Origin: an uncultured Thermoplasmata archaeon
GTDB taxonomy: Archaea; Thermoplasmatota; Thermoplasmata; Lutacidiplasmatales; UBA184
DNA: 64,000 nt
Direction of reading: 5' to 3'
Assembly: GCA_963749205.1 (NCBI GenBank)
Contig: CAVVLW010000006.1
Span: forward strand, 129,176 to 193,175
Shown here: piece by piece, positions 3,943 through 63,172 of the stretch
How positions within the stretch are numbered: position 1 is the stretch's first letter
Layout of the letters: the number at the start of each line of letters is the position of its first letter
Program-made: the position numbers and the translations under genes
The notes under the pieces: model-generated
What the model was told of the DNA's origin: nothing
Databases searched by the model: none
Seen by the model: only the letters and a program-made list of their open reading frames with translations

Positions 3943-4183
3943 GATCTCCGAACTCCCGCCCCCCAAATTAAGCGCTCCGAGTTGCGGGGATTTGGGCCGT
4001 GGCCCACTCCGCCGCGGCCCTGTGACGGGTACGTCGGCCGGGCGCGGACGTAGCCACCCGCGTCGCCCGGGCAAGAACCTGCGGTTTTGCGTGGTGGGCG
4101 CACTCCTCGTTCCAGCCCGTTGGCCGTTGTCAGCATCAACCCCGGCCTCGAACGCGGCCCCAATTGAACTTCTAACCCTGTGA

Positions 4184-4867: not shown

Positions 4868-4972
4868 ATGGACCCTTCGCCGAGGAAACGGACTCTTACT
4901 TCCCGGAGCGCAGGCGCAACAAGGCTGGGAAGCGAGTCGCGCTCCCCGAAACCAAGAATCCTAAAACTCGAG

Positions 4973-5961: not shown

Positions 5962-6306
5962 TCGGTGGCCCCCCGACCTCGAACACTACTCGACACAACG
6001 GATTATGTTGCCCATCTCGCAGGCCACCACCGGGCGAGGCCCGTGGTTGCAACCATGCTTACACCTCTGACGCTGGAGCCACTTCCCTAGGCCAGCAGAA
6101 ACAATTGCTGTCCGCTCCCGTTTTCACCAGTGACCTCAACTTCCCACTCTCGAGAGTACCTCGAACGTTGCCTGGTAGAGCGGCTTCAGCTGCATGAACG
6201 GCGGCCCCTACCGCGTCCCGGAGCGCGTGATTCCCTAGGCTGATTTCTGTGCTACCCCATGGGGCGCCGGTGAATCATGACGGAGTGACCCCGTTCGCTG
6301 GGCCTC

Positions 6307-7262: not shown

Positions 7263-7482
7263 CTACGGAAGGCTCCTACCCGCCGCTCGGGAGGAGGTTC
7301 CGCATGATATACCTCGCGCCGGTCGATGGTAGTTTTTTCCGATCACGACGAGTTTCGCGCTCCGGGGGAGGCTCTCCCGCGATGGTTCGAGCCATCGAAG
7401 TCGCGATTCCCCCTCGGCCGTCAGAAGGGTTCAGGTAGGCGAGCGCATTGGTGATTCGAGCCGTTCCATGATTCCGTCCGAA

Positions 7483-8854: not shown

Positions 8855-8883
8855 CCCGAGATGGTCGGGGAAGGAGCGCCGCC

Positions 8884-9261
8884 TCAGTTCGACCCCGACG
8901 GAGATGGGCCGACATCGAGGTGATCCCGCGGAAACCAGCCGGTTCGGGACTGCGAATCGCGGCACCACAGCCACCCGCCTTGGCGGTCCTCCGTGATGAC
9001 TTGCAACTCTTCGCCGACGAGGGGGTCGAGGGTGGTGGTATCGTATCCCTTCCGGACGTGCCCGGTCGCGCCTTCCCTCCGAAGGATCCGCGCCGGAACC
9101 CACCCCCGCTCTCCCTTTCTCGTGGTCACGAACACAAAGGCGGGCCATTCGCTGGACTGCTCTCCAACCTCCAATTTCTCCCCGCGGCGAACCACCAGAG
9201 GCGGCGTAGAGATCCTGGTGGACGGAGGCAGGCGCCGTACGACTCGGACCGTCCGTGCCAT
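8884..9261 (-). CDS. Hypothetical protein, SH3-like
   Basis: 125-aa ORF. The pattern GWVPARILR ... GWLWCRDSQSRTGWFPRDHL resembles bacterial SH3-type domains. The assignment is weak. Confidence 0.45.
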   Translation of the reverse strand: MARTVRVVRRLPPSTRISTPPLVVRRGEKLEVGEQSSEWPAFVFVTTRKGERGWVPARILRREGATGHVRKGYDTTTLDPLVGEELQVITEDRQGGWLWCRDSQSRTGWFPRDHLDVGPSPSGSN

Positions 9262-9442
9262 CTCGGGTTCGGTAGGGTTCTGCGTTCAAAAGCAGCCACG
9301 CTCCGTTGCAAACTACCACGGACTGTGTGCAACCGGCATTGCACCCACGTTCCGTCGAGCACGAAAAATCCCGGCGCGGCTTTGTCAACCGAGGAGGCCG
9401 ACTGAAATTTCGCTCGGGAATGGTCCGCGGGATGGGGCACGC

Positions 9443-9754
9443 ATGAGAGTTCAGTTTTCCGGGACCGTGGACGCCGACGGCGCGGCGGATGAGCTCATCC
9501 TGGCGTACCTTGCCCGCCACCGGGGCGGTTCGGTGACCGCGGATCAAGTCTGGAAGAGTCTGCGCTCGCGGGGCCTCACGCCGTCGGACGGGCGACCGAC
9601 CGCTCAGAATGACCCAGATGATGGGGTCGCGATTGCAGAGATTCGCCGTAGGTTAGAAAAGTGGTTGGACGAGGGTTTGGTCGGTGGAGAAAAAGAGCCC
9701 GAATCCATTACCGGCGACCGTCACTTCTGGGCCCTTGGAAAGTTACCGGTGTAG
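9443..9754 (+). CDS. Hypothetical small protein (possible winged-helix)
   Basis: ATG 9443 within ORF 8993..9754. The sequence (ELILAYLARHRGGSVTADQVWKSL) has non-repetitive composition, unlike the upstream part of the ORF. Confidence 0.4.
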   Translation: MRVQFSGTVDADGAADELILAYLARHRGGSVTADQVWKSLRSRGLTPSDGRPTAQNDPDDGVAIAEIRRRLEKWLDEGLVGGEKEPESITGDRHFWALGKLPV

Positions 9755-9821
9755 CGCCGAGCGCGAGTCAAACTGGGCGGCTGATTGACGTCGTCTGCGT
9801 CGGAGGCTGGTGATCGTGGAC

Positions 9822-10315
9822 TCAGGCGTACTGGAACTTGGTCAAGGTCGTGCGGGATACGGGGAGGCGCGACGACAGCGATCCCGTGAGATCTTCCGTC
9901 GTCGCCTTGGTCCAGAGCCCCCAGAGATCGAGGGAGAGGGCGTGCCGTCGTTGCCGGTGAACACGACGGACGACAACGTCCGCCCGGTTCCCGCTCCGGT
10001 CCGATAGCCGGACGGCGAACGATCGGGCCCTCGCGGCCGGAGCCCAGGCTCCGCTCTCGAGGGCCCTGAGGAGCTCTCCAACCGGTTCCTCGGGGACCGA
10101 AGTGCTTTCCGTTCCGGCAGGGGGAGCCACCCTCCCGGACGGATCTCCCAGTGGTCGATCCATCGAAATCTGCGGGCGGCCAAAGCGTGCAGAGTCGCGG
10201 CGGCCAAAAGGAGGAGGTCGGCCGACTCCACCAGGTCCTTCTCGGAGAGTAATCTCTCGAGCCGCTGGAGAAAGGGGGCTCCCTCGATCGGTTTCGTTAC
10301 CACGGTAAGGTCCAT
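9822..10315 (-). CDS. Hypothetical protein; reading frame interrupted
   Basis: ATG 10315 gives MDLTVVTKPIEGAPFLQRLERLL (9842..10606 frame). After about 10150 it continues in the 9822..10163 frame (EEPVGELLRALESGAW...LSLDLWGLW). No family recognised. Confidence 0.3.
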
Positions 10316-10559
10316 CTCGATCCGAACATGACGGTAGGGTCGGTTTCGCTGCCGTCGATTCGACCTCGGACCGGAGATAGGTTGGTTGAGGATGGAAATT
10401 GGGCCCACGAGGTCAGGTGCCGAAAGAGCCGGGGGTGGGGGACCGGAGGGTGTCACGACCGGCGGTGGAACGTGCGCAGAAGACCCTTTTGCACGCTGCG
10501 GGGAAGATTCCGCTCGGTCGAAACGCTCCCCGGAGGGGAGGGCGAGGGGGCTCCGTCCG

Positions 10560-11355
10560 CTATGGAGCGGGCACCTTCTGGAGGAAGTTCTGGACTGCCA
10601 CCGCAAACGATCCCGGCGCTTCCAACGACGGGAGGTGCCCAGCTGCCGGAATCCCCACCCCTGAACCTTGCGCGATTAACGGGACCATTGATTGGCTCTG
10701 GGTCGGTGGAATCAACTGGTCCTCCTCTCCCCAGATGACCAGTGTCGGGACGTGGATCGTGGACAGGTACTGGGGTCAAATCGGACCGATCGGCGATAGC
10801 CCTCAGAGTACTGCGAATGGTCTGCGTCGGGGTTCCTCGCACCATTCCCCGGACCTGCTCGACGACTGGTCCTCCTCGCTGCCACGTTGCGGGCGCAACA
10901 AGACCGCGCACGGTCTCCTCGACGTCCAGAAACTGACCGGGGGCCCTCAGCCGTCGGATGGTCGCTTGTCGCTTTTCCTTCGCTTCCGGGCTGTCCGCCG
11001 CGGAGCGAGTGTTGGTCAATACCAAACCCCGAAACATTTCCGGATGCATGTGGATCCATTGCAAGGCGACATAGCCCCCGAAGGAATGCCCCACAACGAC
11101 GGCAGGGCTCGTCACGCGCGCCGCGATCGTCCGATGAACGCTCTCGGCGAATCCCTCCAGGCTGTTCGGGACCTGCCAAGATTGGGCTAGGTCGTAACCA
11201 GGCAAGTCCAGGAGAACCACGCGATGTTCCCCCGAGAGACTCTTGAGCTGCGGCAGCCACATCGCGTGGTTCAGCGGGTACCCGTGCAGGAAAACGACCG
11301 TCGTCCCACTGCCTTGATCCACGCCGGGGAGCGGGGCATCGGAGGCGGTCGTCAT
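10560..11355 (-). CDS. Alpha/beta hydrolase; reading frame interrupted near the 3' end
   Basis: VVFLHGYPLNHAMW and the nucleophile elbow VVGHSFGG are present. The true C-terminus is recovered in another frame (IHVPTLVIWGEEDQLIPP...GIPAAGHLPSLEAP, stop at 10560). The frame change is near 10745. Confidence 0.7.
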
Positions 11356-47867: not shown

Positions 47868-48602
47868 TTACGATTCCCGAACGGGGGTGCCCGACCCTTC
47901 GGTGTCGCTCCCGGTCGACCCCTCGGAGGCGAGCCAGCGTGCGACGAGCCGACCCTCCGCGCGCCGCAGGACCTTTCCGAGACCGGGGGGGCTCCGCCCG
48001 GTCTGCCGGGCGAGGCGGCTCAGCGTGATCCGTCGCGGGACCGTGAAATAACCGAGGACCCACGCCCGCGCGATGAGCTTCGACTGCAAGGGGGTGAGCA
48101 ACGGCGTGGCCCCCTCGGCCGCGAACGGATGGCCCGAGGAGCGCAGGATCTCGTACGGGAACTCCTCGCGGTCGAGCCGCTTCAGCACCCGACGTAATGC
48201 GCGCTCCTCGCCCCGGAACGACGCTACGACCTTATCGGCGTTCAGGCGGAACGGCGCGGTCGGAGCGATCTCCCCTCCGGCGAGCGAGAGGAGGCGACGC
48301 AGCCGTTCGGGATTTCGTTGCCGGACGAGCAGGATGTAGTCGCGCGTGCGGGGACGTCGCTCGACCAGCTCGAAGCTCTCGAGCCCATAGAGCGAGCGGA
48401 TCCTCCGGGATTCCCGTTCGAGTTCGCTCGCGGTGCGGAGCGGGCCGCGTCGGCGAACCCTCAGCAGTTGCAGGCGCCAGCCCTGCTCCAGCCGGAGCGT
48501 CTCGAGGAGTTCGATCTCCTCGTACTTTGCGAAGAGCCCGGGCGGGAGGACTCCCAATAATTCCAGGTCGCCCGATCGGAACTCGAGGGTGACGGATTGC
48601 AT
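47868..48602 (-). CDS. HTH_10 (bacterio-opsin-activator-like) DNA-binding protein
   Basis: The C-terminal motif is LTPLQSKLIARAWVLGYFTVPRRITLSRLARQTG...VLRRAEGRLV. The probable ATG start is at 48602. Confidence 0.65.
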   Translation of the reverse strand: MQSVTLEFRSGDLELLGVLPPGLFAKYEEIELLETLRLEQGWRLQLLRVRRRGPLRTASELERESRRIRSLYGLESFELVERRPRTRDYILLVRQRNPERLRRLLSLAGGEIAPTAPFRLNADKVVASFRGEERALRRVLKRLDREEFPYEILRSSGHPFAAEGATPLLTPLQSKLIARAWVLGYFTVPRRITLSRLARQTGRSPPGLGKVLRRAEGRLVARWLASEGSTGSDTEGSGTPVRES

Positions 48603-48692
48603 GGGCGGACCGCGCGGAGGAGAGGTTCCCATATGAACCTGACCCCCTGGCGTCTCGGTCGGTTAAATAAGGCGGCGGGCTCGCTCGCCGCC

Positions 48693-50177
48693 ATGACGTT
48701 CCGGAACCTGGGCGAGTTCCTCGCCCGGCTCGAGGAGGTCGGGGACCTGGCCCGGGTCGCTCGACCGGTCTCCCGCGACCTCGAAATCACGGAGGTCACC
48801 CAGCGGGCCCTCGGGACCGACGGGCCGGCGCTCCTCTTCGAGAACGTCCCGGGCGCCGCGATGCCGGTCGTAACGAACCTGCTCGGCTCGCCGCGCCGCA
48901 TCGCGCTCGCCCTGGACGCGCCGAACGTCGACGCGGTCGCGGAGCGCGTGGCGCGCCTCGTCCACCTCCGCCCCCCGGCCGGAATACTGGGCGCTGTCCG
49001 CGACCTGTCGGGAACGATCGATGCGCTCTCCACGCTGCGGTCGCTGGCGCCGAAACGTGTCCGGTCCGGGACCGTGCCAGGAGGTCGAGGAGCCGTCCGT
49101 CGACCTCGACCGCTTGCCGATCTTGAAGTGCTGGCCGAAGGACGGCGGCCGGACGATCACCTTCCCGGTCGTCGTCACGTCCGACCCCGATACCGGGGAG
49201 CCCCACACCGGGATCTACCGCCTCCAGCAGTACGGCCCCGACACCCTCGGAATGCATTTCCAGGTCCACCGGGTCGGTGCGAACAACTACCGCAAATGGG
49301 CGGCCCGCGGCGAGAAGATGCCCGTCGCCGCGGTGATTGGCGTCGACCCGGCCACCGTCTTCTCGGGGCTCTCCCCCGTGCCCGAGGGGATCTCCAACTT
49401 CGTCTTCGCGAGCTTTTTGCGCTCGGAGCCGCTCGAGCTCGTCCGGGCCCGGTCGGTCGACCTCGAGGTCCCGGCGCAGGCCGAGATCGTCCTCGAAGGG
49501 TACGTCGACCCGACGGAGCGGCACCTCGAGGGCCCCTTCGGGGACCACACCGGCTACTACTCCGCCCCGGAGCCGTTCCCCGTCTTCCACGTCACGCGCG
49601 TCACGCACCGCGAGCGCCCGGTCTACCTCACGACCGTGACCGGGAAAGCCCCCGACCGAGGACTCGGTCCTCGGCAAGGCGGTCGAACGGGTCTTCCTCC
49701 CGGTCGATCCGGCTCGTGCTGCCAGAAGTGGTCGACATGAACCTGCCGGCCCCGGGGCTGTTCATCAACGTCGGCGTCGTTGCGATCCGCAAGTCCTACC
49801 CGGACCACCCCCGCAAGGTGATGCACGCCCTCTGGGGCCTCGGCCAGATGATGTTCGTTCGGTACCTGATCGTGGTCGACGAGGACGTCAACGTCCACGA
49901 CCTCTCCGAGGTGCTCTACCGCGTGGGCCTCCAGGCCGACCCGGCACGCGACCTCGAGCTCGTCCAGGGACCGGTCGACCAGTTGTCGATCTCGAACCCG
50001 GTGCCGAACATCGGCGGTAAGGTGGGGATCGACGCGACCCGGAAGCGCCCGGAGGACGGGTTCCCGCGTCCGTGGCCCGAGGAGATCCGGTCGGACCCCG
50101 CCGCGAGCCGTGCGGCCGAGCAAGCGATCCGGGAAGACCCGGCCCTCGCGCGGCTCCTCGGTCGGTCGGGTCGGTGA
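48693..50177 (+). CDS. UbiD-family (de)carboxylase (MqnL/UbiD-like); two frame changes
   Basis: ATG 48693 gives MTFRNLGEFLARLEEVGDL. The middle (KCWPKDGGRTITFPVVVTSDPDTGEPHTGIYRLQ, EGPFGDHTGYY) is in the 49021..49740 frame. The C-terminus (DMNLPAPGLF..VVDEDVNVHD) returns to the first frame. Confidence 0.8.
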   Translation: MTFRNLGEFLARLEEVGDLARVARPVSRDLEITEVTQRALGTDGPALLFENVPGAAMPVVTNLLGSPRRIALALDAPNVDAVAERVARLVHLRPPAGILGAVRDLSGTIDALSTLRSLAPKRVRSGTVPGGRGAVRRPRPLADLEVLAEGRRPDDHLPGRRHVRPRYRGAPHRDLPPPAVRPRHPRNAFPGPPGRCEQLPQMGGPRREDARRRGDWRRPGHRLLGALPRARGDLQLRLRELFALGAARARPGPVGRPRGPGAGRDRPRRVRRPDGAAPRGPLRGPHRLLLRPGAVPRLPRHARHAPRAPGLPHDRDRESPRPRTRSSARRSNGSSSRSIRLVLPEVVDMNLPAPGLFINVGVVAIRKSYPDHPRKVMHALWGLGQMMFVRYLIVVDEDVNVHDLSEVLYRVGLQADPARDLELVQGPVDQLSISNPVPNIGGKVGIDATRKRPEDGFPRPWPEEIRSDPAASRAAEQAIREDPALARLLGRSGR

Positions 50178-51513: not shown

Positions 51514-53378
51514 GTGCCGAGAACCGTCGACCGCCTGGAGGGAATCGCCCTCGTCGGGATGGCGAGAGTCGGGGCGTTGGCGTTCTCGACGCCGGGTCTC
51601 GCGGAGAGCCAACCTCCGGCGGATGACGGCGCTGGACTGACCCTGCGCAGCCGCCCGTCGCCCGCCGGCACCCGGGAGCTCACGCTCGCGAACGGCACCG
51701 GGCAGCTCGACCTGCATTTCCCGATCCTTGCCCCCGAGGTCATGGGCGCCCCCGGGACTGGCCTCCCCGTCGGGGACGGCGCCGTTCTCGTCCACGCACC
51801 GCTCTCCCCCCCTCCCGAACTTCCGAGGTCGGCCCCCGTCCCGACCTAGTCGTCCTGGGCAACGCGCGCGCGCTGTGGGCGGACGGCCTTCCGTTCGTCC
51901 GGGCGCTCCGGGAGGTCCGCGAGGTGTACGGAGGGTCTCCCGTGCTCTGGGCACCGCGGGTAGCGCTGCCCCATCGCGTCCCCCTGCTCGCCTATCTCGG
52001 AGTCGACCTGGTCGACACCACCGAGGGCCTGTTCGCCGCAGCCCACGGGACGTACCTCGACCCCACGTTCGGACCGTTCGACGCCGCCATCGCCCGCACC
52101 GAAACGCTCTGCCCGTGCGCGGCGTGCGCCTCCGACCTCGAAGGCCCGCTCCCGGTCCACACCGTACACGCCTATCGACGCGCGATCGCCGAGACCCGCG
52201 CCGCGGCCCGCGCCGGCCGTCTCCGGGAGCTCGTCGAGTCACGACTCACCGCAGAGCCCGCGCTCGCCGAGATGCTCCGCTACGCCGACCGGGAGCTCGC
52301 AGCGTTGTTGGACGAGCGCACCCCCGTCATCGGGGAGGGGCTGCGAGGGTACGTGCTCCTCGAGTCGCAGCGTCGCCCCGAGATGGCCCGCTTCCGGCGC
52401 CGCCTCCTCGAGCGTTACCGCCCCCCACGCTCGAAGACCGTCTTGGTGCTCGTACCGTGCTCGAAGACCAAGCCGTATCGCCACTCCCGATCGCACCGGA
52501 GGTTCGCGACGGCGTGGGAGGGATTGCGTGCCGTCGAGCGGGTCCACGTCGTCTCGGTGAGCTCTCCGATCGGTCTCGTTCCCCGGGAGCTCGAGGACGT
52601 CCCGCCCGCGCGCCACTACGACATCCCGGTCACCGGGGATTGGGTCGACCCGGAACGGGACGCCGTCCTGGCCGGTCTGGGCCACCTGCTCGCCCACGGA
52701 GGCTACCGCTCCGTCGTGGTCCACCTCGACCCCGGGGAGTACACGTTCCTCCGTCCGGCGCTCGTGGGCGGACCGGCCTCGCGCTGGACGATCGAGGACG
52801 ACCGCACCACCTCCCCGGACGCGCTGCGCACGTTGCGTCTCGCCCTCGAAGAGGCGCTCGCCGGGGAGAATCCGGTCCCCGGAGGGCCCCTCGCGGTGGT
52901 GCGGGAGGAGCTGCGGGAGGTCGCGAGCATCCAGTTCGGTCGCTCGGCGGCGGACCGGCTCTTCGCTCCCCCGGTTCCGCTCGCCGGACGCCCCTGGTTC
53001 CAGCGGCTGACCGATGGGCGGGCGGACCTTGCGACCCTACGGGAGGAACGGGGACTGTTCCATCTCACGGTCGCGGGGGCGCGCCGGCTCGTGCCCGGGA
53101 CCCCCCTGTTCGTTGAGGTCGACCCGGCCCTATCGCTGGCCGGCGACCTCTTCACGCCCGGCGTGCGCGGGGCGGATGACGAGATCCGGGTGGGCGACAG
53201 CGTCGTGCTGCTGCGAGGCGGCGCGCTCGCCGGAGTGGGAGAAGCGACGCTCCCCGGCCCCTTGATGCGCGAGCTGGGCCACGGCCTCGCGGTCCGGGTT
53301 CGACATCGCTCGCACCCCCCGACCGACACTCCCATGACGGAGGAGGGACCTCTCCCCGACCCTGGGCCGGTGGTCTAG
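51514..53378 (+). CDS. arcS: Archaeosine synthase ArcS-like (TGT-like N-terminus, DUF5591 core, PUA-like C-terminus); one frame change
   Basis: The N-terminus is in ORF 51514..51849. After about 51845 it continues in the frame of ORF 51924..53378 (DLVVLGNARALW..LAYLGVDLVD, CPCAAC, VLVPCSKTKPY, SSPIGLVPRELE). The last 15 nt overlap tRNA-Val. Confidence 0.7.
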
Positions 53379-53436
53379 TGGTGATGACGCCGCGCTTACA
53401 ACGCGGATATCGACGGTTCGAATCCGTCCCGGCCCA
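53364..53436 (+). tRNA. tRNA-Val (anticodon TAC)
   Basis: Hand-folded 73-nt cloverleaf. Acceptor GGGCCGG/CCGGCCC plus A. D-arm GTCT/TGAC (one mismatch). Anticodon arm CCGCG-ctTACaa-CGCGG. T-arm GACGG-ttcgaat-CCGTC. Confidence 0.92.
53419..53436 (+). repeat. Proximal copy of the 18-nt direct repeat (tRNA-Val 3' end), candidate attL core
   Basis: cgaatccgtcccggccca is identical to 60939-60956. Confidence 0.85.
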
Positions 53437-53438
53437 TC

Positions 53439-53470
53439 GGTATTCGCACCGCCGGGGCGATGCGAATACC
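53439..53470. repeat. Palindromic module adjacent to the proximal core
   Basis: ggtattcgca / ccgccggggcga / tgcgaatacc form a 10-bp inverted repeat, similar in sequence to the module at 60919-60943. Confidence 0.7.
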
Positions 53471-53507
53471 CCTTCGATTTGAGTTCCGAACTCCGAGGTC
53501 AGGTTAT

Positions 53508-54044
53508 TCACGCAATCCGAACAGATAGCGTCAGCCGAATCCAACCCGGTCGAAGTCCGGGCGCTTCTTTTAGTGAAACTCCCCGCGTTCTTGCCATTTC
53601 GATCATCTCATGATACGTCTCGTTCGAGAGGAAATCTTGGAGCCACAAGCGACCACTTACGGCCTGAACCGGGTGGCCACGCGATATCTCGTCGTCCACT
53701 CCTTCGGTGTGCTGAATGGTCAGCGGAAGTCCCTGGCCTGACCAGAGCACTTGCCTGGCGCGACCGTTAGGGTACTCGAAGCGAATGCCTCTCTCATCGA
53801 CAGAAACATCGACGGCACCAGGAGACCACTTCCAGAGGCCCCCGATCGCCGATAACGCGGCGAAGAGGAGTGCGAAAGCTGTCACGAAGAGGGTAACTCT
53901 CGTCCAACCCGGACCCACAATCGCGCTGGCCGCGAAGTATGAGCATATCCCCCCGAACAAGACCGCCCCTCCAAGGGAGATCAGTCGTGTGAGCCGTATC
54001 AGTGCCTTGTAGCGTTGGACACCGTCCGCGGCAGTGAAACTCAC
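53508..54044 (-). CDS. Hypothetical two-TM membrane protein with a soluble C-terminal domain
   Basis: GTG 54044 lies 1 nt after the stop of the giant gene. The helices are LISLGGAVLFGGICSYFAASAIVG and VTLFVTAFALLFAALSAIGGLW. A roughly 100-aa domain follows (VDVSVDERGIRFEYPNG..). No family recognised. Confidence 0.5.
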   Translation of the reverse strand: MSFTAADGVQRYKALIRLTRLISLGGAVLFGGICSYFAASAIVGPGWTRVTLFVTAFALLFAALSAIGGLWKWSPGAVDVSVDERGIRFEYPNGRARQVLWSGQGLPLTIQHTEGVDDEISRGHPVQAVSGRLWLQDFLSNETYHEMIEMARTRGVSLKEAPGLRPGWIRLTLSVRIA

Positions 54045-54045
54045 T

Positions 54046-57000
54046 TCAGGTTCCCCCAGCCACTTCGGCAACGTCGACGACGAAGGCCCCAAAATCCCCG
54101 AGCAGAACGAGAGCATTCACCAGAGGTGGCAATCCATCCGGCGGACCAAATAGGTCTATGATCACGCTGTCCGCATCGAAGACCATAGAGAGGATGGATC
54201 CGAACAACGAACTTACGGCAGCCGCTGCCGCGCACGTAACGATAGCTATGATCCCTAAGGCAGCCCCAACTGTGTCCGACCACGGAGCGTTCGTCTTCTG
54301 AAGCCACGCGTTGAGGACGACACTCCCTGCAACGCTTGTTGTGCCGGCTCCGAGTAACGAGCCCAGAGCCTCGAAGTCGGTGCTGTCAGCTCCACTAAGC
54401 TTCATCTCGAAGGAAGATCCCCCTCCATCCCGAGCGTCGTCAGGACCGCCACTGGCCCCAGTCAGATTCCCGAGTTCGTACCCAACTGATGGTGATAGTG
54501 GGCTCATTTGCGAGAAATATTTCGAAACGTTGGACCCGCCGGCAAGTATAGAGCCTGCAAGAATGCCGCTAACTAGGGCTCCGATTATGAGCGAGAGAAC
54601 GAATGCCGAACCCAGCGACACTCCTTCTATGACTGTTACGACCACTTCTATGGCGACAGCCGCAGCCAGTGCCACCCAAAACAGTGGTTGGGCCACATCC
54701 GACCAGAACCGAGCCTCGTCCTTGGTTGCCGAGCTTTTCGCGATTGTATCATTGACGACTTGTTGGAAGTCGCTCGCCAGCCGGGACGTATAGGCCTCCG
54801 CGGCTGCGATAATCGGTCCGAACGCGATCTTGAGGGCCACCAGCGCAATTTGGGCAAGGTACGCTAGCAGTTGATCCAACGCACGTACGATGAGCTGCCC
54901 GACATGGACGATCGCGGCAGCGGTCCGGGCGAGGACCTGCGCCCCAATCGCCGCCGCTTCGTTTGCGATGCGGTTGAGGTACGTCGTAGCCGCGACCGCC
55001 ACGGAATAGACTTCCCCGACAATGGAGACGATTGCCCCCGTGATCGTCGTCACCACCGCAGAGAAAGCGTTCCAGAAATCGCCCCAAATCCCCCCGGCCG
55101 ATGGCGGCGCTTTATTGTGGGTCGGCGGCCCGTAGAGACCCTGGGAGATCACCGGGGCGTTAGCCAGCGCCGAGAGGACTGGAGCGTCGAGGCCCAGTGA
55201 CGCGACCTGGTTCGTCACGGTCTGGAAGGTGCCGTTCACCCCCGCTGTCGTGTTTGTGAGGAGTGCGGAGAGGAGCAGGTCGAAAGTGGCTGTCGATGTG
55301 ATGTTCAGGGTTACGATCGCCTCCAGGGACGGAGGCATTGGGACGCTAGAGTAAATCGACGGATTGCTGGCCAATCCGCCGGTGTTGTTTGCAAGTGTCG
55401 TCTGCACGACCATCGTGCGAACTTGAAGCGGGCTGGAGCTGGACACCCCAGTCTCCGCGGTGGTGAAATTCCCGGGTGGAGAAGCGATCGAACGGTTCTG
55501 CCAGTACGCCTCGAGGTCGAACATCAGACCGGAGGCAGATCCAAACGACTGCGTAAGGAGACTCCGCGCGGTGGAATCGCTGCTCAATATTGGGGGCGTA
55601 GGATGGGAACTGGGGTACGGGAAGTTCTTCCCTTCGAATACGGCCGTCGCGAACGGGGAGTTCAGGAACTGCTCCCGAGGGAATAGGAGATTGTTCAGTC
55701 CCGGCTGCAGCGAGATCGTGTAGCTGCCACCCCAAGGGTAGGGAATGGATACCGATGTCAACGAGGCCGACGCGTTGATGACGACGAGGTCGAACGACTG
55801 CTCGCCGGTATACCGTTCGAGACCCGGGGGAAGCCCGTTCACTGTCGAGTTGTCGTCCGGTAGCCAGAGATACGTCGGAGTCTTGCGGTCGAGAGGAACG
55901 GTCGAGAGGGCGAGAGCGAGGGTGCCGTTCGGATTCCCGGTGGTGTTGGACCAAGACTCGGAGACGAGCGCGCCATGAACCATGTCGTAGGTCACGTCAA
56001 CTTTCTTGAGAGTCCCATCGAACGGCACTGCGGTAAGGGTGGAGGAGCCAGATTCGTTGACGAGAACCTCGATCTGGACGGTCTCAAACTGAGAGGTCTG
56101 GCTGGACGGGAGGACGACCGTATAGCCGGTGAGTAAGGAGATGCCCCCGGAGAGGCCGACGGGGGCGCTATAGTTAGTGAGCTCCGGCGTTCCCGTCGCC
56201 GTGCTACCCGCGTAGAGCTGGAATTGGGCGGCGTACCCCTCCCCCGTCTTGAGATGCATTACGTAGAGATGGGAGACAGTGACCGAGAGACCGATGGGGG
56301 CAGACGGGTTGATTCGAGAGCCATCTGCAATACCGTCCTGCGGAGCCGAGGCGGCGAGAGGGTCCGCTCCCCAGGAGAGCTTGCCCCACACAGTCATGGT
56401 ACGGTATCCCTTCCAGGCCCCGGTCGTTGCGCGTAGCCAGCCGGCCGCCTTGACGCCGGTTAGGTTCACAAAGGTGGAGAGCGCGGCGGAAGACCAGAGC
56501 ACGGTAGCAGCCCATGGGGAGCCGTCCCCGCTGGCGATCCCGCCCGCTGGAGCCGGAGTCAGATTCGTCCGGTTCTGGTTGGCACTCGACGGGGCTCCGC
56601 TAGGGAATGGGACGTACGATGAGTTCTCGTACCAGTATTCGAAACCGGACTTGGGCAGCTTCGCGCTCGTCGCTAATCCCACGTTGAAGGTGAGATTCCA
56701 AGTGTCGAGCATGTGGCTGCCCGCCGTGTCGACGGTAGTCGGGTTCAGACCGAACTCCTTTTCGATGTAATCGCCGACGAGCCCGTTCGTTGAGTAGAGG
56801 GACGGATCGGCCGTGGCCCTTTGTTGGACGACCCCGCCGCTGACGTTCGTGAAAGTGACCGGCCAGCCGTTCAGTTTCTCCACATCGGTGAGGCCATCTC
56901 CAGAGCTATCTTGTAGGTAAATGAAGCTCAACGGAGCGCTCGAAAGCGAGAGGCTCTGACCATCCCAGGTGAAGTTCCAGATTTCCTGGACAGTGTAGGA

Positions 57001-58467
57001 CGCGTTCCCCGTCATCCCGGTCAGGTTTTCGAGGAACCCTCCCCAGCCGTACTGTATCGCGATGAGGGAAGGTATGGGAATTACGATGCTCGAACCGGTG
57101 CCGCTGGAGAGACCGTAGGTGATCGCACCGCCGGTATAGAGGTGCAATTGATCGTAGAGACTGATCGCCATCGGAGCGAAGATGCCCTCCCCTCCGCCGG
57201 TCTGAGTGATCGAATCGTACGGGTAGGCGATGGATTGCAGCGTGAATCCCTGCCCGAGCTCGGCGAGGGTAGTCTTACCGTTCGATACGCTGAAACAACT
57301 TCCGATAGATTCCGTGACGGTGGCATTGAGCTCGTAGAACGCCGCGCCGAAGAGGCCGTTCAGCCCCGCGGTGAAGGTGTAGGTCCCTGAACTGAAGGTT
57401 CGCGCGGCGACCACCGAGAAATTCAGGGTGGTTCCGATTTCGTAGTACTCGAGTATCCCTAAGCCTCCGGTATTCGAGGTCCAGGTGACGGTCCCTGTAT
57501 CGTTTTTCCCGGACGTGGTTACTATGTTGTTGATTTCGATGTTGTTCGCGATCGTCTCGAACGTGCACGCAGCCTGATACTGCTGAGCCTCGGAGGAGGT
57601 CTGCTGGTTTGCCGAGAGGGTCGGCTTGAGAGTGGAGTTCCAACCACCGGGGTAGCTCACAGTGCTAACCTCGGCGGTGAAGTTGATGTTCTTCAGCGAA
57701 CTGCTTGTGTAGTTTATCCCGGTGGAGAGCACGTAACCCGTTGCGGGTGAGGTTTTGGCGGTCACTGGGCTCGAAGGGTTCAGAGTTTCCGTGCCCTCGG
57801 CCAGCATTGAGTTCCGCCATGCGATCGAAAGCGATTTGTTGCCCGACTGGGTCGCGCTGAGCTGGGTCACAAGGGTGGTCACAAAGGTCGAGCCTCCCGA
57901 CATCGAAATCGAGGTCGGATACCCGCTCATGGGGCTCGTTTTTTGCATCTGGGAGACCAACGGGTCGCAACCGCCGCCGAACCCGTGGTAGTTGACCGTG
58001 TCGAATTCCATCGTGTAGGTGGCCGTCTGGACCGCTGTCCACGAAACCCGGGAATCGGCGGAAAGATTCTGCAGGTAGATATTCGGTATCCATGATGATG
58101 ACTTCAGGGTGACGGTCGACTGATTGTCGATGGTCACCGTGTTGTTGTACGACGTCGGCATGTCGTAATAGTTCGTGCGCGGCTCGTAGACGACCTCCCC
58201 GTTGCAGGTGATCTCCTGCGTGCCGAAGGTCGGTGGCGGGATGTACCACGTGTACACCCCCCAAAACGACAGCTCCGCGATCGTCGGGCTCAGCATCGTC
58301 GTATTCGACCAACCGTCACTAATGTTCCCGTCGAGCGGGGTCGAAGTGTAGACGGGGGCGGGAAACAGGCTCGACGACGGGAGACTGTTCAGGAGCGTTG
58401 CGTTCACCAGTGGGTTGGCGGCGGCGATCGCTTCGACCCCTTCTGCGGCAAGAAGCCAGTCGGACAC
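54046..58467 (-). CDS. Giant (1473 aa) sequon-rich surface protein with a polytopic C-terminal membrane region, unknown family
   Basis: The ORF is uninterrupted, with a GTG start 33 nt after the upstream stop. I count about 35 N-x-S/T sequons. DSSGDGLTDVEKLNGW and EKEFGLNPTTVDT resemble thrombospondin-type-3-like Ca-binding repeats. The last roughly 430 aa contain long hydrophobic helices (LFWVALAAAVAIEVVVTVIEGV, AFVLSLIIGALVSGILAGSILAG, AALGIIAIVTCAAAAAVSSLF). Confidence 0.75.
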   Translation of the reverse strand: MSDWLLAAEGVEAIAAANPLVNATLLNSLPSSSLFPAPVYTSTPLDGNISDGWSNTTMLSPTIAELSFWGVYTWYIPPPTFGTQEITCNGEVVYEPRTNYYDMPTSYNNTVTIDNQSTVTLKSSSWIPNIYLQNLSADSRVSWTAVQTATYTMEFDTVNYHGFGGGCDPLVSQMQKTSPMSGYPTSISMSGGSTFVTTLVTQLSATQSGNKSLSIAWRNSMLAEGTETLNPSSPVTAKTSPATGYVLSTGINYTSSSLKNINFTAEVSTVSYPGGWNSTLKPTLSANQQTSSEAQQYQAACTFETIANNIEINNIVTTSGKNDTGTVTWTSNTGGLGILEYYEIGTTLNFSVVAARTFSSGTYTFTAGLNGLFGAAFYELNATVTESIGSCFSVSNGKTTLAELGQGFTLQSIAYPYDSITQTGGGEGIFAPMAISLYDQLHLYTGGAITYGLSSGTGSSIVIPIPSLIAIQYGWGGFLENLTGMTGNASYTVQEIWNFTWDGQSLSLSSAPLSFIYLQDSSGDGLTDVEKLNGWPVTFTNVSGGVVQQRATADPSLYSTNGLVGDYIEKEFGLNPTTVDTAGSHMLDTWNLTFNVGLATSAKLPKSGFEYWYENSSYVPFPSGAPSSANQNRTNLTPAPAGGIASGDGSPWAATVLWSSAALSTFVNLTGVKAAGWLRATTGAWKGYRTMTVWGKLSWGADPLAASAPQDGIADGSRINPSAPIGLSVTVSHLYVMHLKTGEGYAAQFQLYAGSTATGTPELTNYSAPVGLSGGISLLTGYTVVLPSSQTSQFETVQIEVLVNESGSSTLTAVPFDGTLKKVDVTYDMVHGALVSESWSNTTGNPNGTLALALSTVPLDRKTPTYLWLPDDNSTVNGLPPGLERYTGEQSFDLVVINASASLTSVSIPYPWGGSYTISLQPGLNNLLFPREQFLNSPFATAVFEGKNFPYPSSHPTPPILSSDSTARSLLTQSFGSASGLMFDLEAYWQNRSIASPPGNFTTAETGVSSSSPLQVRTMVVQTTLANNTGGLASNPSIYSSVPMPPSLEAIVTLNITSTATFDLLLSALLTNTTAGVNGTFQTVTNQVASLGLDAPVLSALANAPVISQGLYGPPTHNKAPPSAGGIWGDFWNAFSAVVTTITGAIVSIVGEVYSVAVAATTYLNRIANEAAAIGAQVLARTAAAIVHVGQLIVRALDQLLAYLAQIALVALKIAFGPIIAAAEAYTSRLASDFQQVVNDTIAKSSATKDEARFWSDVAQPLFWVALAAAVAIEVVVTVIEGVSLGSAFVLSLIIGALVSGILAGSILAGGSNVSKYFSQMSPLSPSVGYELGNLTGASGGPDDARDGGGSSFEMKLSGADSTDFEALGSLLGAGTTSVAGSVVLNAWLQKTNAPWSDTVGAALGIIAIVTCAAAAAVSSLFGSILSMVFDADSVIIDLFGPPDGLPPLVNALVLLGDFGAFVVDVAEVAGGT

Positions 58468-58500
58468 GACGTCGAGATAGGTGACCGCCGAACCGAACCC

Positions 58501-60248
58501 CTAGGACGGCACCAGGACTCCGAACGGGCGTTCCTTACCGCCGGTGGTAACGGGGCCGGTGTTGACGGCCGAAGTTAGGGTCGCGCCACCCGCGATCGTG
58601 TACCGTTGGTTGGGGCTCTGGCCCGCCACCTGTTCGCCGATGTACGAGAGGGGGCTGATGCTCACATTCTGATACAACCCGGCCGTCACATTGCGCGTTG
58701 CGTCGAGGTAGGGGAGATTCATCGCTCTGCTCGCGTTGGCGGCGACTTCGCTCAGCATTCCGGCCACCCCGGCCGTGAAAGTGGACGCGCTGGTCGAGCC
58801 GACCAGGTTCGGACTGCTCACGTTCAGCACGCCCTGCTGCATCGCGGCAACGGCGTTGGCGACAGAGAGGAAAGCGCCAGTTTCCGAGAGGGCGTTTCCC
58901 CCCGGGCTCGCAGGCGTTGCCCAGGTCAAGAGTAAACGTTGGAACGAATCGACCGCCATCCCCACCAGTAGACGGTTCCCGACCTTCCAGGCCCCTGTTC
59001 CGCCAGGTAGAGGAGCAGGATCCTGGACGATACGTCCGTCCGGTGAGAAGACCGCGCTCTCGATCGTGGTGAGGTTGGTTCCGGCGGTCGCGAGCCAGGA
59101 AGCGTAGACGTAGCCGACTTGGGTTCCGAGCACTTCGGGGTCGATCATCGCCCCCGCGGTCAGAGGGAACAGCGACGGCCCTTCCCAAATGAGGCCGTCG
59201 TCCGAGGAGATGTATACCGCTCCGATTACCTGCCCCAACTGTAGCACCGTGGAGAGTACGAAGAGATTCCCTCCGACGACCGTGGCAGACACCTGGCCCA
59301 GGAATCCGCCGGGCGTGTTGAGAAAGGTGGATCCGATCGTGGCGAGGGCCGCGGAGACGTTCGTGTCGTTCAGGGGACCGATCTTCGTTGAGCCGAAGCT
59401 TCGACCATCGTTCCAGGACGAGTAAAACACTACTGTGTTCGATGGCGTTGAAGCGACTACTCCTTCCTCTGCCCCTGCCTGGGTCCTGAGGATCACAGGA
59501 TTTGCGTCGACAACCGCGCCAAGGGTAGTGCTGACGATGGTCCCACCCGGGATCGGGAATGTCGTGACGAGCAAGGTGCCCCCGCTCCCTATCGTGGTCG
59601 CGGCCACAAATCCGTAGGGGTCGAGAGCGAGACGGACGTCGGTGCCGGCGACACTTCCGAGGCTCGTCCAGGAAGCTCAGAGCGCTCGCGACGCTCGACA
59701 GGTAAAGATACGACGTCGACCCGCAGGTGATCCCCGCGACAACCGACGAACCGTCGGCGGCGACCACCAGTGCTGACGAGGAGCAGTTGCTCTTCGCCGA
59801 AAATCCCCCAATATTGTAAGGGGTCGACCAACTGAGGGGGAGCGTGGGGCTCGGCTGCCCGGGAGGTCCCGGAACGTCCTGCAGGATGTTCTGAGCGATG
59901 GAAGGGGCGAAGATCCCTTCGGAGACCTCGAAGCTCGTCGTGTAACTCAGCGGGTGTGAACTGACCACGGTAGACGCGTATACGAGAATGTAAAGCGGGT
60001 TGGTCCCGATGCCCTGTCGCTCCGAGCTGGGGAAGGTAGAGCGTCTGGTTGGAAGTGGCCGAAATGGCCGATTCCGGACTCGGGAAGAGGGAAGGAGAGA
60101 CCAGGTAAGGATAGTAAGGAGTTGAGGCGCCGGTGATCCCCGGTGGGTAGGTCGGCGGTCCAGGACCCGAGGCTCTTGCGATACCGAAAGCGGAAAAGAC
60201 CATGATGAGGACAGAGAAAATCGCTAGGATGGACGGACGAACGGGCAA
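58501..60248 (-). CDS. Secreted BNR/Asp-box (sialidase-like beta-propeller) repeat protein; two frame changes
   Basis: TTG 60248 gives a signal-like MPVRPSILAIFSVLIMVFSAFGIARA. The frame changes near 60030 (g-run 60029-60032) and near 59675. Asp-box-like SSWNDGRSFG and SSDDGLIWEG are in ORF 58501..59607. About ten sequons are present. Confidence 0.6.
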
Positions 60249-60918
60249 GCGAGCGCCTCGCCGCCAAGGGCGAGAGGCTCGTCCTCGAGAATAGGACGTC
60301 ACGCACCGGGTCCGGCCGGTGATTGCAGGGGGACCACAGGGCTCGAGAGTTGAACGCGTGAACTCCAGACTCTCGTAGGGATCGCGGTGCGCCGGGTTTG
60401 GCCTGAAGGCCACGGTGTCCTCGTCGACGGCCCGGCACCCGGCTCGAAGCCGGGGCGTCTTGGAGTGGGGCAATGAATCCGGCCTAATGAACCTGCTGTC
60501 GTGTACGAGAGATAGGGCGGTCTGCCTCACCGCTACGGACGCTTTCCCCGCTTTTTGGCCCGAACACCGAATGGAAGACGGCGCAGTCTCCCAAGCGCGC
60601 CTCTTCGACATGTCGTACGGAACTGTGCGGCGAATTAATTCGCCCGATACTGCCTACGGGTCGGCGATCGGTCTGTGAAAGGGCGCGGGCGATAATTCTG
60701 AGTTCTGAGGTTGCCCAACGGGATGTATTCGAACTACCAGTTGAATGCGGTTGTCGGGACTCGAACCCACCTGGCCTCAATCAAGCGACTCCCTCAGGAT
60801 GAGGATGGAATCGATCCGTCGTTGTCCGGGAGGGAGTTATCGATAGGTTGTGAACCAACTATAGCTCACATCTCGCCGGAATCAGTCCGGCCGAGTCGTA
60901 TCAATGCACGTCTGTGAT

Positions 60919-60943
60919 ATTCGTATCGCGGGGCGATACGAAT
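60919..60943. repeat. Perfect 11-bp palindromic module running into the distal core
   Basis: attcgtatcgc / ggg / gcgatacgaat. The 3' arm overlaps the start of the 18-nt core copy. Confidence 0.75.
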
Positions 60944-60956
60944 CCGTCCCGGCCCA
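60939..60956 (+). repeat. Distal copy of the 18-nt direct repeat, candidate attR core
   Basis: cgaatccgtcccggccca is identical to the tRNA-Val 3' end. No cloverleaf lies upstream of it. Confidence 0.85.
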
Positions 60957-60985
60957 CGGTTCAAAACTCGGTCTGAACGCCTTCG

Positions 60986-61461
60986 TCACTCACCCGGCGC
61001 ACCGGGCGCAACGTACAACGTGATGGTCCAGTTGCCCGATTGTTGGTAGATACCGGATTCATTATCCGGCGCAATCCAGGTGGCGTTGCCCCACGGGGCG
61101 CCAAATCCAGTGGATCCGTAGAACGTAACTCCCGTGAACGGCTCTGTCACGGAAACAAGCGTTCCATCGCCGTCTCCACAGAAGTACCTCGCGCTAGATG
61201 GAACGTGAAGCTGACGAATTGCACCATCTCTGAGGTTTTGGTCCAAGTATCGTTGTTTGTAGAATGAAGGGCTTGCATCGAGTTCACCGTGGTCAACTCG
61301 TGGCAGTAGTCGTGTCCCTGGACAGAGACCGGAAGCCCGTTGGAGGCGGGGCATGCACCACCCGTGCTCGCCGGATAGCTCGGGAAAATCCCCAGCACGA
61401 GTATCACGGCGATCGCAACCGCTGTCCCTGCAAATATGGCGTAGAGCGTTCGTCGCTCCAT
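60986..61461 (-). CDS. Hypothetical membrane-anchored or secreted small protein; one frame change
   Basis: ATG 61461 gives MERRTLYAIFAGTAVAIAVILVLGIF (ORF 61147..61602 frame). After about 61300 it continues as ELDASPSFYKQRY...GNATWIAPDNESG...NWTITLYV (ORF 60986..61354). G+C is low (45% on line 61201). Confidence 0.4.
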
Positions 61462-61606
61462 GGGATTCCTAGTCTTCTCGCAAGTATGCCCGGCGGTCCC
61501 GTATATCCATTGCCGGAGGGCGGGGAATGAGATTCCCGGGGGGATGTGCGGACGGCGCACGCGGTCGATGATCCACCGCGAGGGGCACTGCAACCAATTC
61601 AAGGTC

Positions 61607-61647
61607 GATACTCGTATCGCCCGGCGACACGAATCCGCCCCGCCCGA
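61607..61647 (+). repeat. Degenerate third copy of the palindromic module plus tRNA-3'-like tail
   Basis: gatactcgtatcgcccggcgacacgaatccgccccgcccga matches 60916-60956 at 34 of 41 positions (ungapped hand alignment). Confidence 0.6.
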
Positions 61648-62081
61648 CCTTGCGAGGGGGAGACTTGCGTCGCGGCCCGCTTTCGAGGGGAATCGGTTGC
61701 ACGCCGGGGGCCGGACCGACCTCCTAAATTCACCGCGGCCTCCCGGACCCTCATGTCGGGGGGCTCAGGGAACGACCGTCCGCAGCCTACGATCCCCGGC
61801 ATCCCTCCCGGCATGGTCGGGGCGGTGATCTCGGTCCTCGACGCGTCCCGGGACCGCTCCGGCGGCGGAAAATCCTCGAAGAAGTCGAGCGACGCGGGCA
61901 CCGCATCTCGCTCGCGGGATTGAACCGGGTCCTCCAGCACTGCTCTCAGTCCGGGCTCACGGTCGAAGGCCCGGACGGGGTCCGACTACGACGGTGACGG
62001 CCGCTCCGGCACCGTCAACGAACGGCGAGCGTTCGACTGCATACCATACCTATAGTACTTTGTATAGTCTAAATTGAAATT

Positions 62082-62113: not shown

Positions 62114-63172
62114 ATGATCGAAACGAGTCCAACGGAGGAACGGGTCCGACCCCGGCGAGCCTCCGCCCCCCGCCGAGCGGCGCGACCGCCGGCGTCCGAC
62201 GCGAACCCCCGCACCTCCCGACCGACTGCCCGTCCCTCCCGCCGCCGAGCGGCCGCCCCGACCCGGGTCGCCGCACCGTTCGGTGCCCTCCTGCTTGGGC
62301 GGCCTCCCGTCGCCACCGTGAAGGTCGGACCGGGAGAATCCTCCGAGCACCTGTTCCGTCGCCTCCTCGGGGCCTATCTCGGCGGCGCTCGCGAGTTCGT
62401 GGTAATCGACCGACCCGGCCGAACGAGTCGAACGCGCGACGTCGTTCGCACGTTCTGCCGCCGGACCCGTCAGCCCGAGATCGTCTCGGAGGAGGACGGA
62501 GTGATCCGGCTCCGCGACCTCGCGTACGAAAGCCCCGTGCCCCTCCCCGAGCGCCTGGCCCGGATGGGCCGGATGGTCGTCGGATTCCACCGCGAGGCCG
62601 TGGAGAGCTGGGCCCAGCTCCCGCTCGAGGACGACCGGTCCTGGGAGCGACGGGACGACGAGATCGACCGCGAGGCCTGGTACGTCCAGCGACTCGCCGC
62701 CCTGCGTCTCGGCCTCGACGGCTCGGGCGTGACCCTTCTCGGACCGTGGACGATCGCCCGGAGCCTCGAACGGATCGCAGACCACGCGACCGTGCTCGGA
62801 GAGACCGGACGCCACCTGGTTGAGCTGCCGAACGGGGCCGGGCCGCTCACCTCCTTGAAGCAGTTCCACCACCAGGCGATGGACCTCCTGGAAGGGGTCC
62901 TGAACGCGCGGGACGATGCCGCCGCCAACGACCTGCTCGACATGGGCGACGCGCTCCTCGCCTCCGGACGTGCGCTCTCCGACCAGCTCCTGCCCGCGGT
63001 CGGAGGTGGAACGATGCCCCCCGCTACCGCCGCGGCGGTAACTCGGATTCTGGAATCGATCGGCCGCACGATCGCCTACGCCCAGGACATCGCCCAGGTC
63101 GCGCTCGACCGGGCGATCCCGGTGACGTTCTCCGACGCGGTCGAGCACGAGGGCGAGCCGATCCCCCTGTAA
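62114..63172 (+). CDS. PhoU-domain protein (phosphate uptake regulator-like) with an Arg/Pro/Ala-rich N-terminal extension
   Basis: Intact 352-aa ORF. Two PhoU-like helical repeats are present, with RSLERIADHATVLGE and ESIGRTIAYAQDIAQ. The first roughly 65 aa are low-complexity. Confidence 0.7.
   Translation: MIETSPTEERVRPRRASAPRRAARPPASDANPRTSRPTARPSRRRAAAPTRVAAPFGALLLGRPPVATVKVGPGESSEHLFRRLLGAYLGGAREFVVIDRPGRTSRTRDVVRTFCRRTRQPEIVSEEDGVIRLRDLAYESPVPLPERLARMGRMVVGFHREAVESWAQLPLEDDRSWERRDDEIDREAWYVQRLAALRLGLDGSGVTLLGPWTIARSLERIADHATVLGETGRHLVELPNGAGPLTSLKQFHHQAMDLLEGVLNARDDAAANDLLDMGDALLASGRALSDQLLPAVGGGTMPPATAAAVTRILESIGRTIAYAQDIAQVALDRAIPVTFSDAVEHEGEPIPL

Follow-up and report, generated by a model that had tools for sequence, protein, structure and literature searches.

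An integrase-less island of two tandem units behind a tRNA-Val gene in a soil Thermoplasmata archaeon

Low-G+C DNA that begins precisely at the 3' end of a tRNA gene raises the question of whether it arrived by site-specific integration and, if so, how it came to be there with no integrase of its own. Such DNA lies in the 64-kb stretch of contig CAVVLW010000006.1 analysed here (the window, whose positions serve as coordinates throughout), which belongs to a soil Thermoplasmata archaeon of a UBA184/Lutacidiplasmatales-like group. The tRNA-Val gene of the window is followed by an insert of ~8.3 kb of foreign DNA that consists of two tandem units, each bounded by attachment (att) sites. A first-pass annotation, made from the sequence alone, had proposed that an integrated element without an integrase, or the remnant of one, occupies the 3' end of tRNA-Val; the present analysis supports this proposal, including through an arm motif shared with integrase-bearing relatives. 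At a probability of roughly 0.72, we consider the island to be an att-flanked, integrase-less derivative of a tRNA-targeting integrative element that was produced by two tandem integrations. Loci of relatives are designated by L-numbers and their proteins by P-numbers.

The boundaries of the island are set by repeats derived from the tRNA gene. The 18-mer CGAATCCGTCCCGGCCCA occurs exactly, and on the same strand, at 53419-53436 and 60939-60956 (chance expectation, 0.02 in shuffled sequences), as first reported, and these are its only copies, so that it is not a dispersed repeat within the window. A third, degenerate copy (74% identical to the tRNA end) was found at 61625-61647, and the 42-nt blocks at 60916-60957 and 61607-61648 that enclose the second and third copies are 83% identical to each other. 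Unit A (53437-60956) is thus closed by the exact 18-nt repeat and unit B (60957-61648) by the degenerate one. At the right end of both units lies the palindrome TCGTATCGC-N3-GCGATACGA, the right arm of which runs into the tRNA-derived core. In unit A the 18-nt cores are identical and both flanking palindromes are intact. The palindrome at its left end, P1, aligns with the right-end palindromes P2 and P3 and also with the attL-adjacent sequence of two integrase-bearing loci, L074 and L115. The features that delimit the island are as follows (DR, direct repeat).

53363-53438, plus strand: intact tRNA-Val(TAC), detected by ARAGORN and by Rfam (tRNA, 72 bits at 53364-53436); its 3' end is the integration target (attB/attL side)
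53419-53436, plus strand: DR1, the 18-nt core repeat within tRNA-Val, from the T-loop to the acceptor 3' end; exact copy at 60939-60956 (repeat family D2)
53439-53470, no strand assigned: P1, palindrome GGTATTCGCACCGCC-GG-GGCGATGCGAATACC at the left end of the element (inverted repeat I14), containing the arm motif GCGATGCGAATACC
60919-60956, plus strand: right end of unit A, P2 (ATTCGTATCGC-GGG-GCGATACGAAT) overlapping DR2 (60939-60956), from repeat searches and alignment
60957-61606, no strand assigned: body of unit B, G+C 0.59, with one small gene for a membrane-anchored secreted protein (61462 to 60986, minus strand, in two frames)
61607-61648, plus strand: right end of unit B, P3 and the degenerate DR3 (61625-61647); 42-nt repeat D3 (83%) and third copy of D2 (74%)
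61792-61993, plus strand: small conserved winged helix-turn-helix (wHTH) gene of the host flank, upstream of the PhoU-like gene (62114-63172), where the homology of relatives resumes; it lies outside the island and marks its outer limit

Comparison with related genomes places the limits of the insert independently of the repeats. One genome per species was scanned, which yielded 78 related loci, all from metagenome-assembled genomes (MAGs) of soil and peat Thermoplasmata, that share the gene order ArcS, tRNA-Val, a variable stretch, the small wHTH gene and the PhoU-like gene (ArcS, encoded upstream of tRNA-Val, is an archaeosine synthase with DUF5591 and PUA domains). DNA homology breakpoints were determined between the window and 10 close relatives: in these, homology ends at 53436-53442, directly after the tRNA, and picks up again at 61792-61798 or at ~62045; in L003 the resumed block begins 52 nt past the tRNA. 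The distance from the tRNA to the PhoU-like gene is 8.7 kb in the window and 119-483 nt in L002, L003, L007, L012, L027, L041 and L044, seven relatives in which the site after tRNA-Val is essentially empty; it amounts to 1-9 kb in ~22 loci and exceeds 9.4 kb in many others. Relatives of the island proteins are encoded at none of these 78 loci. The situation that was named at the outset as a refutation, with all related genomes carrying the genes at this locus, was not observed; the empty sites all come from other species. Because the homology to relatives stops at 53436 and resumes only at ~61795, the insert is real but longer than first stated: the end that the first-pass annotation had placed at 60956 is only the junction between two tandem units, the second of which ends at 61648.

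The composition of the DNA changes at the same points. G+C is 0.603 for 53437-60956 versus 0.71 and 0.72 in the left and right flanks; in 200-nt windows it drops from 0.72-0.75 to 0.55 at ~53.4 kb and exceeds 0.66 again only at ~61.5-61.7 kb. Low G+C and non-homology to relatives both continue beyond 60956, to ~61650-61790. The tetranucleotide distance to the host reaches z = 14.9 in the island and is about 0 in host DNA, and G+C at third codon positions is 0.64-0.76 in island genes versus 0.85-0.91 in host genes. The spacer upstream of the largest gene of unit A and the body of unit B are as low in G+C (0.59 each) as the island genes. Five counts on single 60-nt lines, from which the composition break had originally been proposed, were reproduced exactly, and the break is sharp in the sliding-window G+C and tetranucleotide analysis.

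No integrase was found among the open reading frames (ORFs) of the island, and a candidate for the enzyme that would have acted at this site was recovered from other genomes. The survey of the island's gene pair, described below, covered four contigs and 32 metagenome loci, and one of the loci, L092, is a complete element: a 21-nt repeat of a tRNA-Pro 3' end, extending from the T-loop to the 3' end as in the window, bounds 21.8 kb that hold a 963-aa PriCT primase-helicase, a serine resolvase, several secreted proteins, homologs of both genes of the pair and, adjoining the distal repeat, a 471-aa protein that matches PF00589 with E = 0.0024, below the gathering score. A homolog of this protein (E = 8e-98) is encoded in L081 at the 3' end of tRNA-Glu, 1.2 kb from the gene pair. 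In L074, a ~450-aa homolog (E values of 6e-29 to 5e-52) directly follows the counterpart of the window's tRNA-Val, and a 73%-identical protein, P0157, occupies the same place on 23 contigs (L115-L118) in the order UbiD-UbiA-ArcS-[tRNA-Val]-integrase. The family, recovered by tblastn with the L092 protein as the query, has at least 210 members in Thermoplasmata MAGs, most of them named "hypothetical" and few "integrase." Its profile finds as its best PDB match the XerA protein of P. abyssi (4a8e, E = 4.8e-4), and its invariant columns R154, K197, Y287-x-x-R290, H317 and Y325 would correspond to the catalytic R, K, Y for H, R, H and Y. The protein of L074, L081, L092 and L115 is accordingly predicted to be a divergent tyrosine integrase, an assignment that its position at tRNA ends supports. 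The pooled Pfam scan of the inserts of relatives comprised 71 ORFs, and because only its top 25 families were given, integrases could not be excluded from these inserts by that scan.

The integrase-bearing elements are tied to the window by DNA sequence as well as by target. The 13-mer GCGATACGAATCC, found 9 nt after tRNA-Val in L074, has an identical counterpart overlapping DR2 in the window and variants at DR3 and 20 nt after the tRNA; similarly, the tRNA-adjacent sequence of L115-L118 (reverse complement), AATACTCGTATCGCCGGGCGAT, agrees with P2 and P3 at about 20 of 23 nt. These matches do not consist of tRNA sequence, and the units of the window therefore share element-specific arms with integrase-bearing elements.

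All the genes of the island are on the minus strand, and unit A carries two of them, listed here with the lesions and the spacer that belong to them (TM, transmembrane).

53508-54116, minus strand: small partner gene, whose product has two TM helices and a soluble domain; 202 aa long with ATG 54116 as the start, 178 aa with GTG 54044
54046-60330, minus strand: giant surface-protein gene, ~2,050 aa, one gene; start uncertain, about 60250-60330
58501-58503, minus strand: in-frame TAG between the "propeller" ORF and the 1473-aa ORF; GAG in L080 and a sense codon in P0001
59674, minus strand: 1-nt insertion, a frameshift relative to L080 that splits the 5' part of the giant gene
60015, minus strand: 1-nt insertion, a frameshift relative to L080 that likewise splits the 5' part of the giant gene
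60331-60918, no strand assigned: spacer without coding sequence, 5' of the giant gene, G+C 0.59; conservation with L080 extends to 60513

Three tightly packed genes on one strand had been described here. The ORFs and the gaps of 33 and 1 nt were found as described, the number of genes is two, and the strand is minus. In the assembly, the giant gene is broken into ORFs 54046-58467, 58501-59673, 59675-60014 and 60016-60203+. Because two homologs, P0001 (1944 aa) and P0002, 57% and 90% identical, respectively, can be aligned collinearly with the whole stretch from 60203 to 54475 in three reading frames, the ORF first read as a separate propeller-like protein and the 1473-aa ORF are parts of one gene. 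The supposed 33-nt gap between them comes down to a single in-frame TAG, and the 1-nt gap between the giant and the partner holds if the partner starts at GTG 54044. The giant gene is 89% identical at the DNA level to a copy in L080, and the ratio of nonsynonymous to synonymous substitution rates (dN/dS) between the two is 0.076 overall and 0.04-0.16 per segment, including the segments upstream of each lesion.

Conserved host genes of the window carry lesions of the same type, scored relative to six relatives. The UbiD-like gene (48597-50177), 88-96% identical to its ortholog in L032, has three 1-nt insertions (~49067, ~49640 and ~49705); ArcS (51514-53378), which is 621 aa long in L116 and L118, is split at ~51840; and the small wHTH gene (61812-61993) has a deletion at ~61842. 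These indels point to residual indel errors in the assembly. Since conserved host genes share this type of lesion and dN/dS is low throughout, the insertions at 60015 and 59674 are most likely assembly errors as well. The view that the giant gene is a pseudogene was downgraded on the same grounds, namely, the 1-nt indels in the UbiD-like gene and ArcS and a dN/dS of 0.04-0.16 everywhere.

The giant protein combines a charged N terminus, a signal anchor, an N-terminal beta-rich region and an ectodomain rich in N-x-S/T sequons (37 versus 16 expected in the protein) with about 6-7 hydrophobic segments within the last 340 residues. Two Asp-box-like motifs (SWNDGRSF and SSDDGLVW) occur in the N-terminal part, which has no Pfam BNR match and whose AlphaFold model (predicted local distance difference test [pLDDT] score, 36.6) is too low in confidence to use; the AlphaFold2 model of the C-terminal membrane region (pLDDT 32) is too poor for a fold search. 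These features indicate a large membrane-anchored, probably N-glycosylated surface protein. The likely function of the gene pair lies at the cell surface or envelope, to the advantage of the host, where it could serve surface variation, or of element transfer. All island proteins were scanned against Pfam, PHROG, NCBIfam and PADLOC without a match, as had been anticipated when the cargo proteins could not be assigned to a named family, and PDB sequence and profile searches returned nothing or only accessory TIG domains. No relatives of the giant protein were found in 2.9 million viral contigs, nor any sequence match to solved viral or cellular fusogens.

The spacer part conserved with L080, up to 60513, is presumably a promoter or 5' region. 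Fragments resembling tRNAs had been reported from the ~700 nt of non-coding DNA, and ARAGORN and Rfam (E<=1) detected none in this ~600-700-nt spacer apart from the repeat itself. Unit B, with its ORFs at 61147-61602 and 60986-61354, is not homologous to relatives, and no homolog of its protein was found among 114 loci.

The giant gene and its partner recur elsewhere as a unit. A profile of the C-terminal region of the giant protein retrieved 393 clusters at E <= 1e-3 and 218 at E <= 1e-30. Full-length members are 1,900-2,750 aa long, and the only recognised domains are accessory TIG, PKD and FN3 domains, present in some members; PDB matches are limited to TIG. In a dozen or more loci (including L079, L080, L083, L085, L087, L093, L094, L110 and L113), the giant gene is followed directly by a homolog of the small partner, and in archaea from peat and soil the pair forms a compact low-GC block, often of 7-8 kb. 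In some cases this block is flanked by repeats: by a 40-nt repeat including a tRNA-Thr 3' end in L110 (span 8.4 kb, giant and partner only), by an 18-nt repeat in L113 (span 8.4 kb) and by a 28-nt repeat in L101/L102 (span 10.8 kb, with an insertion sequence [IS] transposase also inside).

Several side observations concern this family. An 877-aa secreted repeat protein with a C-terminal anchor is encoded in L110 (3982-6615) just outside the repeat-bounded module, in further low-GC DNA, which suggests that surface-protein units accrete at tRNA-Thr too. The 15-kb contig L080 has two diverged copies of the 5' part of the giant gene (1-1974 and 6243-10395, 80% and 89% identical to the window) in opposite orientation, flanking L7Ae and KH-domain genes. 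Motifs conserved in the giant family are YLxDTSGDGLTDxEK..GW, NGLVxDxxEKEFGLNPxTxDTAGSHMLDTWNLTF and WGKLSWGANPL; YLxDTSGDGLTDxEK appears to resemble calcium-binding D-x-D-G-x-x-D-x-x-E repeats.

The island can be accommodated in a simple sequence of events. The 3' end of tRNA-Val(TAC) would be the attachment site for lineage-specific integrative elements that encode the ~450-aa divergent tyrosine integrase. Two successive integrations into this one tRNA gene would have left unit B as the older unit, decayed and pushed outward, and unit A as the younger one with its perfect repeat; we infer this order from the standard model, in which a reconstituted tRNA is entered repeatedly. Both units would be non-autonomous derivatives of larger elements that lost their integrase and replication modules, being either products of deletion or att-flanked passengers still movable by a related integrase. 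In L081 the order is tRNA-Glu, integrase, partner, giant, and removal of the integrase segment would yield the order seen in the window, with unit A retaining only the two-gene module of the giant and its two-TM partner. No replication or virion gene was found in either unit.

A number of points weigh against this account. The giant gene is lower in G+C than its flanks in nearly every genome examined (e.g., 0.59 versus 0.73 in L094), so that the composition signal stems in part from the gene family and is not proof of recent transfer. The empty sites are drawn from other species (ArcS 57-86% identical) and not from the same population; exact look-ups of the PhoU-like and partner proteins of the window, as a route to same-strain alleles, found neither on record. 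No member of the Thermoplasmata integrase family is encoded in the 64-kb window, and with no integrase in either unit, present-day mobility is unproven. Scans of viral and metagenome collections with att motifs revealed no free or circular form, and the att motif TCGTATCGCNNGGCGANACGAATCCGNCCCG was matched neither in the retrieved loci nor in viral or metagenome contigs. Finally, the profile hits on which the integrase assignment draws are weak.

Among the alternatives, the one that survives best, although it is unlikely, holds that unit A is a still-mobile, non-autonomous cassette, similar to a cis- or trans-mobilizable element, and not a dead deletion remnant. The two-gene module with its intact attL and attR would then itself be what is transferred, moved by an integrase encoded elsewhere in the genome or brought in by an incoming element. 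The identity of DR1 and DR2 over 18 nt and the two intact flanking palindromes would fit such a cassette, as would the maintenance of its cargo (dN/dS 0.076) and the presence of cognate-integrase elements at the same site in relatives; moreover, the same minimal content (giant, partner and a ~650-700-nt upstream spacer) is also repeat-flanked in L110 and L113, which would not be expected from random deletions. However, the three repeat-flanked copies occupy different sites with different cores that one integrase could not serve, the viral and metagenome collections yielded no circular junction or free copy, and the 64-kb window has no integrase. Selection for a useful surface gene, combined with loss of everything else, would produce the same picture.

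A related and more doubtful proposal is that the giant and its two-TM partner form the transfer or envelope module of undescribed, capsid-less integrative elements in wall-less soil Thermoplasmata, the minimal units in the window, L110 and L113 being satellites that retain this module and the att sites and use the integrase of a full element. If so, the role of the module could be in cell-cell adhesion or fusion or in vesicle-mediated spread.

It is very improbable that the locus is a native, fast-evolving surface-protein locus whose low G+C reflects a Ser/Thr/Asn-rich composition and low codon bias and whose repeat is incidental. The giant gene is indeed lower in G+C than its flanks almost everywhere, many members of the 393-cluster family sit in ordinary chromosomal contexts, and the proximity of family loci to tRNA genes is at about chance level. 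Yet low G+C extends equally to the non-coding spacer and unit B, relatives lose homology precisely where the tRNA ends, the genes are missing from all 78 syntenic loci, the repeat and the shared palindromic arm motif are far beyond chance, and the gene pair is found within integrase-encoding elements.

Equally hard to credit is a provirus, now defective, of an enveloped, pleolipovirus-like archaeal virus that has no capsid and uses the giant protein as its spike or fusion protein. Thermoplasmata lack a rigid wall, the cargo is confined to membrane and surface proteins, and the complete relative L092 has an integrase, a primase-helicase, several secreted proteins and no recognisable capsid gene, all of which would suit such a virus; against it stand the failure of every protein to match PHROG, the lack of relatives in 2.9 million viral contigs and of sequence matches to solved viral or cellular fusogens, and the architecture of a 2,000-2,700-aa protein with about 6-7 C-terminal hydrophobic segments, unlike that of known spikes. 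Four further candidates were rejected: a provirus of any kind (tailed, pleomorphic or other; no PHROG match and no viral-contig relative), an anti-phage defence island (no PADLOC match), a casposon (no Cas1 match for island proteins, and ends that are directly repeated motifs and not terminal inverted repeats) and a split integrase of the Sulfolobus spindle-shaped virus (SSV) type (no ORF crosses the reconstructed circular junction/attP in six-frame translation).

The tRNA-Val site has received other DNA in relatives. Partial copies of the tRNA-Val 3' end, not whole tRNAs, also lie downstream of it in L001, L008 and L050. Bounded by such copies, and without an integrase, are islets in L001 (11707-15576) and L050 (12744-14933) whose only cargo is large secreted proteins with a C-terminal anchor (L001, 1289 aa; L050, 729 aa, with YVTN-like repeats). 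Surface-protein cargo is thus recurrent at this hotspot. A toxin-antitoxin pair, comprising an MNT-like nucleotidyltransferase with an N-terminal zinc ribbon and a HEPN protein, is encoded between tRNA-Val and the wHTH gene in L032 (11686-12527), the closest relative, as well as in L008 and L050, and is absent from the window. In L037 (11782-15403), the DNA adjoining tRNA-Val encodes a fragment resembling protein-primed family B DNA polymerases (YCETDS motif; no Pfam match) and an IS21 IstB ATPase. Cas1 was matched (E = 1.6e-42) by one of the ORFs pooled from the inserts of relatives.

A second deviant stretch is found at 1-11000 of the window, with G+C of 0.61-0.65 and tetranucleotide z values of 7-11 relative to 16-53 kb. 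Encoded there are adenylate-cyclase/TPR proteins, a hydrolase-cyclase and, of a Dyp-type peroxidase, the C-terminal half alone (6307-6705). A search of the low-GC region at 1-16 kb turned up no integrase.

The integrase family (at least 210 members, directed at tRNA 3' ends), the giant family (~390 clusters, 2,000-2,700 aa, each with a small partner gene) and the tRNA-Val hotspot, at which surface-protein cassettes accumulate, are uncharacterised components of abundant, uncultured soil and peat Thermoplasmata. They provide a handle on how these archaea exchange cell-surface diversity, and a defined att/integrase pair is testable and could possibly be converted into a genetic tool.

Comparison with known systems shows which of these features are new. 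As in SSV-type integration (PMC7253208), the target is a tRNA 3' end and elements become trapped there; the difference is that no int(N) or int(C) fragments adjoin the repeats of the window and no ORF spans attP. The elements that carry fusexin (Fsx1) (PMC9259645) likewise combine archaeal integration with a gene for a large, secreted, membrane-anchored glycoprotein-like product, but the giant protein is three to four times larger than Fsx1, has a polytopic C terminus and shows no PDB similarity beyond its TIG domains. In architecture there is also a resemblance to pNOB8-type and cryptic integrated elements (PMC6563490; PMC8371274), with which the island shares the tRNA 3' target, the short direct repeat, the reconstituted tRNA, the formation of arrays at one site and an ORFan cargo; as in the pNOB8 type, the integrase gene of relatives L074, L081, L092 and L115 is whole and located at the end of the element. 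In cryptic integrated elements the integrase is the conserved gene by definition (PMC6563490), whereas the units of the window have none and the integrase family of the relatives falls below the Pfam threshold.

The lack of an integrase had first been regarded as unusual. Att-flanked islands without one are, however, a recognised category: cis-mobilizable elements (CIMEs), as defined in ICEberg 2.0 (PMC6323972), are flanked by attL and attR and devoid of genes for integration and transfer. Unit A resembles CIMEs and their tandem accretion in that it keeps attL and attR, no recombinase or transfer gene was found in it, the island stands in tandem with another unit, and related integrase-bearing elements use the same site; it differs in that the host of the window is archaeal and the parent elements show no conjugation genes. 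Integration into tRNA genes, arrays at a single site and att-flanked islands lacking an integrase are all well known (PMC6563490, PMC8371274, PMC6323972). The type of island is therefore already known, a textbook example of tRNA integration with subsequent decay, and the novelty lies at its periphery: two families without annotation, one of integrases and one of giant surface proteins that have a conserved partner, and the association of these families.

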